From the IMG/VR virus record IMGVR_UViG_2778261064_000018: 4,076 nt of DNA. One strand, 5' to 3'. Below the pieces are notes generated by a model, which saw only the letters and a list, made by a program, of their open reading frames with translations, ran no database searches and was not told where the DNA came from. How positions within the stretch are numbered: the first letter of the stretch is position 1; each line of letters opens with the position of its first letter. A program made the position numbers and the translations under genes. Positions 75 to 4,074 of this stretch are shown piece after piece. Source of the DNA: a virus (taxonomy: Duplodnaviria > Heunggongvirae > Uroviricota > Caudoviricetes).

Positions 75-785
75 TTACACCCTCCCCAGTGCCAGCGGTC
101 TGTTGCTCTGACCATTAACCCCCTGATGCAGCCTGGCGTTTTTCCCGGCGATAAAACCGGCTGTAGCGGCAAACTCTGCACCCCGGCACGCTTTAGCTGT
201 GCGCATATCCCCGTCGCGCAGCCCCTTAGTGCTGTGCAGGTTCTTTCTGTAAAGCTCAAGGCGGCTTTTTTCTTCCGGGGAGACGTCATACACCGCAATG
301 ACATCACGGGCACCAAAGACCCAGCCTTCGCAGAACTGGTCGCCACGGGCCACCCGCGTGGACGGACCACAACGTTTGCAGTGTTTATCCTGATATTTCT
401 TACGCTCTGCCATCATCTGACGGGAAAGCACATCAAACGCGTAAGCCGCGATTTCCGGGCGGCTGTCAGAGCCATAAAAACGCACGTGACGTTTGAGTGA
501 ACCAGAAGCCCGGTACTCGCCGGAGATGTAACACTCGACACCGAAGGCTTTACAGACCAGGTCACACAGGATGTGCATATAACGCGGCGGCGTACTGGCA
601 TCACTCGGCGCACCCGCGCTGGCAGCTTCCTGAATGTCGAACAATTCAGCGTCGTTTTCGCTGATGCCATGCTGGCGCATATAAGCCTGGGCTTTTGCAA
701 TAGCGTTAGCGGCTTCTTCCGGGCTTGATGTCCCTCTGGCAAGGCGTAACAGTTTTTTGATTTTGGCAATGTATTTATCTTTCAT
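75..785 (-). CDS. Conserved prophage early-region protein, DUF2786-like N-terminus (236 aa)
   Basis: Long minus-strand ORF, ATG at 785..783 and TAA at 77..75. The N-terminus MKDKYIAKIKKLLRLARGTSSPEEAANAIAKAQAYM resembles, from memory, the K-I-x-K-L-L-x-L-A / Ala-rich helix signature of DUF2786 prophage proteins. The central part carries several Cys, including a CxxC (HCKRCG). Only a weak Shine-Dalgarno is visible, and the gene starts 14 nt after the stop of the 799..981 ORF. Family name unverified. Confidence 0.8.
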   Translation of the reverse strand: MKDKYIAKIKKLLRLARGTSSPEEAANAIAKAQAYMRQHGISENDAELFDIQEAASAGAPSDASTPPRYMHILCDLVCKAFGVECYISGEYRASGSLKRHVRFYGSDSRPEIAAYAFDVLSRQMMAERKKYQDKHCKRCGPSTRVARGDQFCEGWVFGARDVIAVYDVSPEEKSRLELYRKNLHSTKGLRDGDMRTAKACRGAEFAATAGFIAGKNARLHQGVNGQSNRPLALGRV

Positions 786-1687: not shown

Positions 1688-1879
1688 TTAATGCGGTGCT
1701 TTCAGTGTTTCGACTTTAACGAAATAAGGCTCGACATTAATTTCAACCACACAGCCACATTTAAAATCTCTGGCCGGTGCAACAGTTTTTACCACCCGCC
1801 CACCACGCACTGCCCGGTGTGCAATGTGCATGAAACGAGTACCTGGCGGATATAGCTGATTAAAGCGTTTCGCGTTCAT
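1688..1879 (-). CDS. Hypothetical small protein (63 aa)
   Basis: ATG at 1879..1877 with an upstream AAGGATGGAAG purine-rich stretch. Overlaps the 3' end of the upstream gene by about 20 nt, consistent with translational coupling. Stop at 1690..1688, just before repeat copy 2. No family recognised. Confidence 0.45.
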   Translation of the reverse strand: MNAKRFNQLYPPGTRFMHIAHRAVRGGRVVKTVAPARDFKCGCVVEINVEPYFVKVETLKAPH

Positions 1880-2093
1880 GAGGCGGCTTCCATCCTTTCA
1901 GGTGAGCGTTAGCGCAGAACTCCGCACGATGTTCAGCCCAGATGCGGCGCAGGGTGCTACACGGGCTTTGCGCTGCCTTACGCCACAACTTTTCAGCCTC
2001 GGCATAATCGCCGCGTTGTTCTGCTCTGGACGCGCCCAGCGAATACGCCGCGCAACTATTTCCGGCTCTGTACTCTTTGATATCCTGATGCAT
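1860..2093 (-). CDS. Small helical protein (77 aa), possibly ANR-family-like regulator
   Basis: The track ORF (1860..2204) overlaps the upstream gene by over 100 nt. The internal ATG at 2093..2091 lies 1 nt after that gene's TAA (2097..2095) and is preceded by AGGGG with a 6-nt spacer, so it is the preferred start. The product MHQDIKEYRAG...DYAEAEKLWRKAAQ...RRIWAEHRAEFCANAH has a W...W...R...C pattern that I recall, without certainty, from ANR (AraC-negative-regulator) small proteins. Confidence 0.5.
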   Translation of the reverse strand: MHQDIKEYRAGNSCAAYSLGASRAEQRGDYAEAEKLWRKAAQSPCSTLRRIWAEHRAEFCANAHLKGWKPPHERETL

Positions 2094-2094
2094 G

Positions 2095-2739
2095 TTAAAC
2101 CCCTGCAATATCAAGCGGGATTGCGCGGTATTCAGCAGAATCACCGACGCGCTCATACACGCGGATATAGCTTCTGCTGCCAACCACCTGGACGGCTTCA
2201 CCAATCAGTTTCATGGCGTTATCCCAGCGTTCCTCCGTAATATCGAGACGACGCAGAGCCAGAACGCGCCCGGTGTTAATGTTGCCTTCCTTGTCCGTGC
2301 TGAATGCCTCGCTGATGATGGCTTTAATTTCAGGGCGTGCACCTTCCGTCCAGTCAGCCAGACAGTCATCAATCAGCGCCTTCGCGGTCTGAATGCGTTC
2401 ATCAAGCGCGATACGGTCCTGCATGGCGCGCTGAATCTTGTAACGCCCGTCAAAGCTGTAAAGCGTGATATTGCCTTTTTTGCCGCCTTTCACAGCGCCG
2501 TATTTCTCCGCCGACAGGTCAATAAATGCCTGAATATCACCAAACGCACGCAGTTTCAGTTCCCGCAGTGAGGCGGAGGCAGCAATCACCATCTCCACAA
2601 GCTCACCGACCAGCTGCTCGCGGTCGCGGTCGATATCTTTGATAAGGCTTTCAGGTGTCATTACGCCACGGGCATCCACCCAGTAACCTTCAGGCGCTTG
2701 AGTTTTCGTGTATTGCTTAACTTTATTTTCAGTCGTCAT
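2095..2739 (-). CDS. Conserved prophage protein (214 aa), possibly DUF3164-like
   Basis: ATG at 2739..2737 preceded by TAAGGTAA with a 7-nt spacer; TAA at 2097..2095. About 200 aa, acidic, with an N-terminal ...PEGYWVDARG... segment. Size and position downstream of a B-like ATPase fit the DUF3164 family as I remember it from Mu-like prophages; unverified. Confidence 0.8.
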   Translation of the reverse strand: MTTENKVKQYTKTQAPEGYWVDARGVMTPESLIKDIDRDREQLVGELVEMVIAASASLRELKLRAFGDIQAFIDLSAEKYGAVKGGKKGNITLYSFDGRYKIQRAMQDRIALDERIQTAKALIDDCLADWTEGARPEIKAIISEAFSTDKEGNINTGRVLALRRLDITEERWDNAMKLIGEAVQVVGSRSYIRVYERVGDSAEYRAIPLDIAGV

Positions 2740-2768
2740 AATTAAATTACCTTAGTGATATTTACAGA

Positions 2769-2984
2769 TTAATGTGTGTTATGTGCGCGAGGCGCAACGT
2801 TTTCAGAAAAAATATTCACGCCGTTGTAGTCATTTCTCAGTGCTTCCTTGATAACATCATGTAATCCTGTTGCCACCTGAAACTCCCTTTCGGAAGTGCC
2901 GTCCTTCGAATAACTCCCTGTAATCTGGGTTAAAGTCGCGCCTTTTTCATCGGTATAGATAATTACTTCTAACTTAACCCCCAT
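2769..2984 (-). CDS. Small protein (71 aa), paralog 3 of a tandem small-protein family
   Basis: The track start (3005) lacks an RBS, whereas the internal ATG at 2984..2982 is preceded by AAGGAGA with a 5-nt spacer. N-terminus MGVKLEVIIYTDEKG matches the motif of the 83-aa ORF (MSVKLTIVFTDLGNN). TAA at 2771..2769. Confidence 0.6.
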   Translation of the reverse strand: MGVKLEVIIYTDEKGATLTQITGSYSKDGTSEREFQVATGLHDVIKEALRNDYNGVNIFSENVAPRAHNTH

Positions 2985-3165
2985 GTTTTTCTCCTTTGAA
3001 ATCAAACGATTTAAAAATAATTTCGTTCATAAAACAGTGAGTTTTTCTGATAATGTCGGAAACCTGCTCTCCCGTGACATCAGGCGGCAACTGATACGTC
3101 GCGACGACTTTCTCCGGTTTACCTGGCCTGTCCAGGCTGAAAGTTAATTCAAGCTCTAATGACAT
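2974..3165 (-). CDS. Small protein (63 aa), possible paralog 2 of the tandem family
   Basis: ATG at 3165..3163; the upstream sequence TGAGGGCTGAAAA uses the stop of the preceding gene as part of a GAGG Shine-Dalgarno. N-terminus MSLELELTFSLDRPG is a weaker match to the VKLxIxFTD motif. Overlaps the next gene by 11 nt. Confidence 0.45.
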   Translation of the reverse strand: MSLELELTFSLDRPGKPEKVVATYQLPPDVTGEQVSDIIRKTHCFMNEIIFKSFDFKGEKHGG

Positions 3166-3442: not shown

Positions 3443-3682
3443 TTATTGCCATACGACGGTGCAGCCGTCGATACAGGACGTTTTAACCACGCGGCGCAGG
3501 CCGCTGAATGTCTGAACGATTTCCGTTACCGGCCATACAGGACCACCCACGGGCGGGCAGGCATAAACCACAGGTAAACGGTGATGCTGTCCCGTTACGC
3601 GACCACCGGTGGTGTGGATGGCCACACGGGCACGGGAACGGACGGCGTTAATGGTCTGCTTGTCCATCGTCTTGTTCTCCAT
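3443..3682 (-). CDS. Hypothetical small protein (79 aa), translationally coupled to the upstream ATPase gene
   Basis: ATG at 3682..3680 overlaps the TGA (3684..3682) of the upstream gene in an ATGA arrangement. An alternative start is Met6 (MDKQTINAV...). No family recognised. Confidence 0.55.
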   Translation of the reverse strand: MENKTMDKQTINAVRSRARVAIHTTGGRVTGQHHRLPVVYACPPVGGPVWPVTEIVQTFSGLRRVVKTSCIDGCTVVWQ

Positions 3683-4074
3683 CAGTGAATTAACATTTCT
3701 GCGAATTTATCAATGGCCTGCACACTGACCGGTGCATCGCTGATATCACAAATCCGGTACACACCGCGCGCCAGTTTGAACAGGCGGCGGGCATTACCCA
3801 GTGAGCGTGCGTAGAGCGCCTCGCTGATTTCCGGTTCTGCTGCTTCCGGCATCAGCCCGGTAGCTATCTGGTTAAAATCTTCCTGCGACAGCGTATCGCC
3901 CAGGTTAAGCGCCAGCGCCACACGGCTGTATAACTGGGCGAACTCACCGCGACGTCCCTTGAGGTTAATCAGAAGGCGTGGCATACCCGCCAGGACAATC
4001 CCGATACCCGCTTTGTCATGCAGACGGCGCAGAACCTCCAGTGCGCGATAGGGGAGCAGTTCAGCCTCGTCCAC
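3682..4074 (-). CDS. C-terminal part of an AAA+ transposition-type ATPase (Mu B / TniB / ExeA-like); 5' end lies beyond the window
   Basis: The open frame runs off the right edge, so the Met at 4074 is only an internal residue. The segment ...GIGIVLAGMPRLLINLKGRRGEFAQLYSRVALALNLGDTLSQEDF... matches the h-h-G-x-P-x-L...L...QL-SR...L pattern found C-terminal to the Walker B region in Mu B / TniB / ExeA-type ATPases, recalled from memory. Stop TGA at 3684..3682. Confidence 0.6.
   Translation of the reverse strand: MDEAELLPYRALEVLRRLHDKAGIGIVLAGMPRLLINLKGRRGEFAQLYSRVALALNLGDTLSQEDFNQIATGLMPEAAEPEISEALYARSLGNARRLFKLARGVYRICDISDAPVSVQAIDKFAEMLIH

Follow-up and report, generated by a model that had tools for sequence, protein, structure and literature searches.

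ANR proteins, of which Aar (AggR-activated regulator) of EAEC 042 is the archetype, have no DNA-binding activity and oligomerise via helices 2 and 3. By attaching to the linker/dimerisation region of AraC/XylS activators they block both the dimerisation and the DNA binding of these activators (PMC4983702), and they also bind proteins of the H-NS family, with changes to H-NS-DNA complexes (PMC5570504). For Aar, Cnr-2 and a Vibrio ANR protein, binding to AraC-family proteins has been shown to be direct. In Citrobacter rodentium, the family member Rnr (RegA-negative regulator; ROD_02851) represses regA, limits colonisation and complements an aar mutant (PMC4038620). The Rnr protein of EPEC showed binding to both H-NS and Ler in two-hybrid tests; it represses AafA and the LEE island, with about 500 genes affected, and is functionally interchangeable with Aar, which it replaces in EAEC (PMC10148876). 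The link between Rnr and AraC-type regulators consists of the repression of regA and aggR and of the complementation of the aar mutant, and the papers that we consulted report no direct binding between Rnr and a protein of the AraC family. As to phages, the 2014 paper (PMC4038620) locates the C. rodentium gene in 'a predicted phage-encoded region' and says nothing further on the phage, the word 'phage' is absent from the 2023 EPEC paper (PMC10148876) and occurs in the 2016 paper (PMC4983702) only in a reference title, and our literature search found no paper containing both 'ANR family' and 'Mu-like'. The present analysis adds that rnr has a fixed place in the early operon of a Mu-like transposable prophage.

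The window, by which we mean the whole 4076-base stretch of DNA that was analysed, is 99.9% identical to the chromosomal locus of a Mu-like prophage in E. coli OkiPb01701 (locus L001), positions 21860-22093 of that locus corresponding to window positions 1860-2093. An earlier note on this DNA had described, at 1860-2093 on the minus strand, an ORF whose start it corrected to the ATG at 2093, and this ORF exists as described: with its ATG at 2091-2093 and its TAA stop (1860-1862) counted in the coordinates, it yields a 77-aa product, MHQDIKEYRAGNSCAAYSLGASRAEQRGDYAEAEKLWRKAAQSPCSTLRRIWAEHRAEFCANAHLKGWKPPHERETL, in which the two motifs that the note had quoted, DYAEAEKLWRKAAQ and RRIWAEHRAEFC, occupy residues 29-42 and 49-60, respectively. 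The longest form of the ORF begins at a TTG and spans 1860..2204 (114 aa). The ATG start is backed by the following observations: (i) RefSeq annotates identical coordinates in the 99.9%-identical E. coli locus, under the name "ANR family transcriptional regulator", (ii) Met1 is invariant across homologues, the database entries of 94-98 aa being products of upstream starts that reach into the DUF3164 gene, (iii) positions 1-76 of the phrog_2227 profile (E 5e-27) align with residues 1-76, and (iv) a Shine-Dalgarno-like AGGGG, read directly from the sequence at 2100..2104 of the minus strand, lies 6 nt 5' of the ATG, within the 3' end of the DUF3164 gene. Since the TAA stop of the DUF3164 gene (2095-2097) is 1 nt before the ATG, the two genes are probably translationally coupled.

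Comparison with 16 related loci gave a pN/pS of 0.11 in the ANR frame and of 1.32 in the antisense shadow frame, and 17 of the 18 nucleotide differences that separate this ORF from the rnr gene of E2348/69 are synonymous; the ORF is a real gene under purifying selection. It is hardly conceivable that it is a chance or shadow frame, or that the true product is the 114-aa form initiated at TTG 2204, even though the longer ORF is present, some gene callers have chosen the upstream starts behind the 94-98-aa entries, and the opposite strand carries a 120-aa ORF. Besides the two pN/pS values, the N-terminal extension of the 114-aa form falls within DUF3164 coding sequence, Met1 is invariant, and the PHROG and NCBIfam profiles, like the RefSeq annotation, start at or after the ATG at 2093. 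Both the TTG-start form and the antisense 120-aa ORF are ruled out by the starts of the homologues and by pN/pS.

The earlier note had likened the product to the ANR proteins, and had named a family profile match and a helical fold as the test of that likeness; both were obtained and the likeness proved correct. The NCBIfam model NF033650 (ANR_neg_reg) matched with 57.3 bits (E 1e-15; cut-off 32) over profile positions 3-52 of 54, and the proposed alignment with Aar, made by BLASTP against the EAEC 042 protein, gave E 4e-7 at 38% identity across 53 residues and brought the conserved family residues E, W and C into line (E25, W37 and C60 facing E18, W30 and C53 of Aar). Pfam has no ANR model and its scan returned only sub-threshold TPR matches, so that the family would have escaped a check restricted to Pfam. 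When 1.8 billion representative proteins were searched with a profile, 189 matches were obtained at E <= 0.001, made up of small ANR-like proteins and of long multi-TPR proteins whose match is limited to positions 21-43, and NF033650 was passed by 77/77 diverse small relatives. Across 77 family members, E25, W37 and C60 are invariant, while A21, A33, A40, W52 and R56 are at least 90% conserved; the cysteine near the C-terminus had been singled out as highly conserved by the discoverers of ANR. As for the residues on which Aar oligomerisation and AggR binding depend, each of the nine dipeptides reported to be required for Aar self-association (PMC4983702) keeps at least one identical residue in the window protein (A21, E25, A33, A41, I51, W52, R56, A57 and F59-C60), a statement of conservation only.

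Within the family, the product is identical at 76 of 77 residues to Rnr of EPEC E2348/69 (WP_000553850.1), the sole change being S13 in the window versus R13. Published Rnr primers match the window with zero mismatches at 2061-2093 and 1864-1895. Those searched, all taken from PMC10148876, were the Rnr cloning primer, the BACTH (two-hybrid) reverse primer and the lambda-red arm of EPEC rnr, the arm matching with 0 mismatches over 78 nt across the DUF3164 stop and the rnr start, the AGGGG stretch included. The mass of the 77-aa product (8.84 kDa) is below the 10 kDa bound of the family (<10 kDa; PMC4983702) and within the Clade 2 range of 8.5-9.05 kDa, and the product qualifies for the Rnr orthologue group. 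Because of the 76/77 identity to E2348/69 Rnr and the exact primer matches, the ORF is, on its sequence, rnr, of subfamily SF1 (PMC4038620) and Clade 2 (PMC10148876). Assignment to SF2 (Aar/Cnr-type) was rejected, because neither the window nor the prophage holds an AraC-family, fimbrial, dispersin or aat gene and the element is a chromosomal Mu-like prophage, not a virulence plasmid. The gene is thus already known, and since it belongs to a known family and is the orthologue of a characterised protein, we do not count it as new; the window adds a new rnr allele, not a new principle.

As for the fold, which the earlier note had expected to be helical, the AlphaFold2 model is all-helical (helices 2-27, 30-40 and 46-65; mean pLDDT 78.3; pTM 0.63), with an extra short helix predicted at 71-74, and the three predicted helices agree with the description of the family (PMC4983702). 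A sequence search of the PDB found no solved ANR structure, designed TPR proteins scoring E >= 0.015, and Foldseek found no significant fold match in the PDB, the top ones being MIT and TPR-like three-helix units at E >= 0.4. Membership of the TPR repeats was tried and rejected, as TPR_14 scored 15.8 bits (cut-off 23.5), TPR_2 14.4 (27) and TPR_10 14.1 (27.5); these matches are confined to residues 21-47 (~1953-2033) and reflect the resemblance of one helical hairpin. Judged by these resemblances and by the multi-TPR proteins in the profile search, ANR may be a minimal TPR-like hairpin with one helix added.

Every substantial conserved ORF of the window is on the minus strand. The first in the direction of transcription is a partial gene at 3682..4074, which continues beyond the window and encodes, within it, the last 130 residues of a Mu-type B (AAA ATPase) transposition protein; this identification is based on the AAA family ATPase that RefSeq places beside a Mu transposase gene, and tblastn showed the gene to be kept in all related loci. 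It is followed by a Kil-like early gene (79 aa; 3443..3682; phrog_2679, labelled 'Kil protein for bacterial septation inhibition', E 1.2e-37), by three small genes and by the DUF3164 gene (214 aa; 2095..2739; PF11363 E 9e-79; phrog_846 E 8e-91). Then come rnr (1860..2093), identified as an ANR-family gene by NF033650, phrog_2227, RefSeq and identity to E2348/69 Rnr, and orf63 (63 aa; 1688..1879; phrog_5591 E 1.4e-40), which overlaps the rnr 3' end by 20 nt. Farther on lie a 183-aa gene (1062-1613; phrog_7741, an uncharacterised family), a 60-aa gene and a DUF2786/DUF7168 early gene (236 aa; 75..785; PF23771 E 3.5e-29; PF10979 E 5e-13), the last being kept 3' of the ANR gene in related loci and belonging to the same operon. 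The whole element, as seen in the OkiPb01701 locus, is arranged as repressor, Ner-like gene, Mu transposase, AAA ATPase, early region, gp16-family gene, Mor and lysis, head and tail genes, so that rnr is co-oriented with transposase A and the B ATPase upstream and with the gp16-family gene and Mor downstream. The placement in a phage early operon that the earlier note had put forward is borne out by this layout, in which the B ATPase, Kil-like and DUF3164 genes upstream and the DUF2786/DUF7168, gp16-family and Mor genes downstream share one strand with rnr.

Several features of the window lie outside this conserved frame. A 63-aa ORF at 2974-3165 of the minus strand (full-length match to phrog_38867, E 6e-47) is kept in several related loci, but the RefSeq record that is 99.9% identical has no annotation there; RefSeq has probably missed a gene. 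The 183-aa gene was found in 6/19 IMG/VR loci, is missing from E2348/69 and is flanked by two hairpin-forming repeat copies at ~1001-1031 and 1620-1664 (GGCGTAAGCCAGCC..GGCGGGTTTACGCC), its site having the look of a moron-type insertion slot. The GC content is 38-42% at 2700-3100, 900-1100 and 1500-1800, where variable small genes and intergenic hairpins lie, versus 54-57% in the conserved early genes, a mosaic composition owing to which H-NS would be likely to target parts of the early operon. Rfam had no match in the window, the repeats of the 183-aa gene included, and PADLOC matched none of the nine window proteins. A crude promoter scan of the window detected no sigma-70-like site on the coding strand, and terminator-like matches in the window were not above shuffle expectation. 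A megablast search of the phage collection with the entire window gave no match either; the element is known only as a prophage.

We compared this layout with that of 19 IMG/VR loci recovered with the window protein (L006-L024) and of two E. coli genomes, OkiPb01701 (L001) and E2348/69 (L002). The core order of B ATPase, (Kil), variable small genes, DUF3164, ANR and orf63 holds in 19/19 of the IMG/VR loci and in both E. coli genomes, Kil being present in the latter two, and the DUF2786 gene follows the core in all but L024, the most divergent locus, in which neither Kil nor DUF2786 was detected. The ANR gene stands directly after DUF3164 in L006-L024, L001 and L002, and likewise in two further IMG/VR loci (L026 and L027) and in a Yersinia prophage (L034). 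A short gap or 1-3 small genes separate the two in L003, L004, L025 (IMG/VR) and L038, a group that includes the isolated phages Mannheimia vB_MhM_3927AP2 and Vibrio vB-Vv-ZX4290 and an Aeromonas prophage (L038); in the metagenomic prophage L035 the ANR gene follows Gam instead of DUF3164. Phage Mu yielded no ANR, DUF3164 or orf63 homologue, and the idea that Mu itself carries ANR was dropped for want of a homologue there. A literature search on DUF3164 found no functional papers.

Exclusivity of ANR to Mu-like phages was rejected on the basis of eight look-ups outside the viral database, of which three proved to be Mu-like loci, while the ANR gene was upstream of a T4SS operon in two, beside fimbrial genes in two and in another kind of island in one. 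In the T4SS cases, divergent ANR genes (L030:656-901 and L033:2881-3147) immediately precede operons for VirB/Trb type IV secretion (conjugation), which means that conjugative elements also carry ANR, besides phages and virulence plasmids. The Aeromonas Mu-like prophage has two adjacent ANR-like ORFs (L038:4780-5231), one matched weakly (E 1.7e-6) and the other strongly (E 5e-20), a possible tandem duplication. Scans of viral contigs with the divergent ANR clades P0045 and P0068 found nothing, two scans of genome contigs gave pattern matches of which none was confirmed, and L028 was discarded as a spurious weak match.

Among complete E. coli genomes, the rnr locus occurs in 58 of 5426, and RefSeq annotates an 'ANR family transcriptional regulator' at all 58. 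The sources of these strains are cattle, swine, chicken, mouse, dog, crow, river, soil and human, and the locus was found twice on large plasmids; the distribution of rnr follows the prophage, and a restriction to attaching-effacing strains is not obvious. The prophage is inserted in fliH in OkiPb01701 (L001:28068-28415) and in eutC in E2348/69 (L002:14937-15374), as expected for near-random Mu-type insertion; the AraC-like YbcM is encoded near the prophage of OkiPb01701. About 2 kb from the E2348/69 site lies eutR, a gene of the AraC family, which is listed in the Rnr regulon by the 2023 paper (PMC10148876), and this listing could reflect disruption of eut or proximity, not an action of Rnr.

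The gene that follows ANR raises the question of a partner. We found orf63 after the ANR gene in 19/19 IMG/VR loci (fused in L024) as well as in L001, L002, L026, L027, L034 and L035, and because in-frame ANR-orf63 fusions occur in L024 (4344-4763) and in the representatives P0016 and P0077, the arrangement suggests that the products of rnr and orf63 work together. Taken further, Rnr would be one half of a two-protein module with a joint target or activity that is absent from either protein by itself, and the published view of the single gene would be incomplete. We think this stronger version unlikely. It is favoured by the constancy of orf63 behind ANR in every enterobacterial Mu-like locus as well as in L026, L027, L034 and L035, which are divergent, by an overlap of ~17-20 nt in close relatives, L026 and L034 (in L035 orf63 lies 144 nt downstream), and by the single in-frame ORFs of L024, P0016 and P0077; yet Rnr expressed alone from a plasmid complements and represses (PMC10148876, PMC4038620), Aar, Cnr and the ANR proteins of the Mannheimia and Vibrio phages have no detectable orf63 alongside, and an apparent fusion in P0088 resembles a frameshift. 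AlphaFold2 gave only a poor model for orf63 (pLDDT 65), which counts against the module and gives no basis for a statement on its fold.

The reading that we prefer, and hold with high confidence, is that rnr lies in the early region of an E. coli Mu-like prophage and encodes a three-helix protein without a DNA-binding domain that acts via protein-protein contact. By virtue of its 99% identity to EPEC Rnr, from which function can be carried over to the window allele, the protein would damp AraC-type and H-NS/Ler-controlled host genes as it does in EPEC. Against this reading, no AraC-family gene adjoins rnr or lies inside the prophage (L001), unlike the Aar and Cnr loci, and the crude scan saw no sigma-70-like site on the coding strand of the window from which lysogens might make enough Rnr for the published phenotypes. 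Transcription of rnr would be with the early operon, from the early promoter of the prophage, and its translation would be coupled to that of DUF3164; an arrangement of this kind should leave little Rnr in lysogens and release a burst of it in induced cells. Low-level expression of the early operon has been reported in Mu lysogens (PMC3820752), and leaky expression of the same sort could explain phenotypes of lysogens.

A different view of what the protein is for leaves its identity and its binding unchanged: the selected role would serve the element, through early neutralisation of H-NS, and the effects on virulence would be collateral. AT-rich early DNA, the early promoter or transposition targets would in that case escape xenogeneic silencing. 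We entertain this possibility tentatively. The synteny speaks for it in that ANR is fixed in the Mu-like early region, 3' of DUF3164 (or of Gam, in L035), in Escherichia, Yersinia, Aeromonas, Mannheimia and Vibrio, keeping this position at ANR identities down to ~30-45%, and in that other ANR genes head VirB/Trb conjugation operons, although some ANR genes adjoin fimbrial genes, with no mobile-element function nearby. H-NS is bound by both Aar and Rnr (PMC10148876, PMC5570504), other phages possess H-NS antagonists (T7 gp5.5, T4 Arn and LUZ24 gp4), and a passage of PMC8501957, citing van Ulsen 1996, has the Mu early promoter repressed by H-NS; but Mu, the sole case in which H-NS repression of an early promoter has been shown, has no ANR gene. 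The low GC of the variable early-region parts (38-42%, versus 54-57% in the conserved genes) and the occurrence of the locus in 58/5426 complete E. coli genomes of many sources, beyond attaching-effacing pathogens, would also fit. No phenotype of an ANR-mutant phage is known, and the case for a phage-serving role is made up of synteny and analogy.

Stated in full, and still on the doubtful side, the proposal would be that ANR is primarily an early- or leading-region function of DUF3164-type Mu-like phages and of some conjugative T4SS elements that disarms H-NS-type silencing, with orf63 as a partner in the enterobacterial Mu-like elements, and that the EPEC and C. rodentium phenotypes are side effects of low-level early-operon expression. 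The synteny supports the association with mobile elements, not the mechanism, and an anti-H-NS role in the service of the phage is, by analogy, plausible. If true, such a role would link an anti-virulence factor to the evasion of silencing by transposable phages and conjugative elements.

The early-operon location has consequences of its own. From the fixed place of rnr in the early operon it follows that its presence in a strain goes with carriage of the prophage (~1% of complete E. coli genomes, of varied origin), that its dose should depend on repression and induction of the prophage, and that replacement of rnr by a cassette may be polar on downstream early genes.

Among the systems described so far, Rnr of EPEC E2348/69 is the nearest, as it shares 76/77 residues with the window protein, DUF3164 upstream, the 63-aa gene downstream and residence in a Mu-like prophage; it differs in R13 instead of S13, in a prophage inserted in eutC and not in fliH (OkiPb01701), and in its small variable genes, for example in being without the 183-aa gene of the window. 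ROD_02851 of C. rodentium is of equal length, being a 234-nt gene (PMC4038620). Aar belongs to the same NCBIfam family, is 38% identical over 53 residues, has the E/W/R/F-C signature and is likewise a small three-helix protein with no DNA-binding domain. In contrast to the window protein, however, Aar has 63 aa and is encoded on plasmid pAA, ~4.4 kb from aggR and in the aap and aaf region, under activation by AggR, whereas Rnr of the window has 77 aa with a C-terminal tail (KGWKPPHERETL) and is borne by a prophage, an element without an AraC-family gene.

A comparison can also be drawn with phage proteins outside the ANR family. T7 gp5.5, T4 Arn and LUZ24 gp4/Mip are small proteins made early by their phages, whose binding to a member of the H-NS family relieves or alters silencing, and Rnr, like them, is a phage protein of an early operon that binds H-NS (PMC10148876), but ANR proteins differ in that they also target AraC/XylS activators. 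There was no sign of homology to these antagonists in our family and structure searches, which gave the ANR family, sub-threshold TPR and uncharacterised PHROG families only, in libraries that may lack the antagonists. With the early (semi-essential) region of phage Mu, the prophage shares the repressor, Ner-like gene, transposase A, B ATPase, Kil, small genes, GemA/gp16-family gene and Mor, and it departs from Mu, which is without ANR, DUF3164 and orf63. As judged from sequence, the window prophage is in the branch of Mu-like phages that carries DUF3164, as are Mannheimia vB_MhM_3927AP2 and Vibrio vB-Vv-ZX4290.
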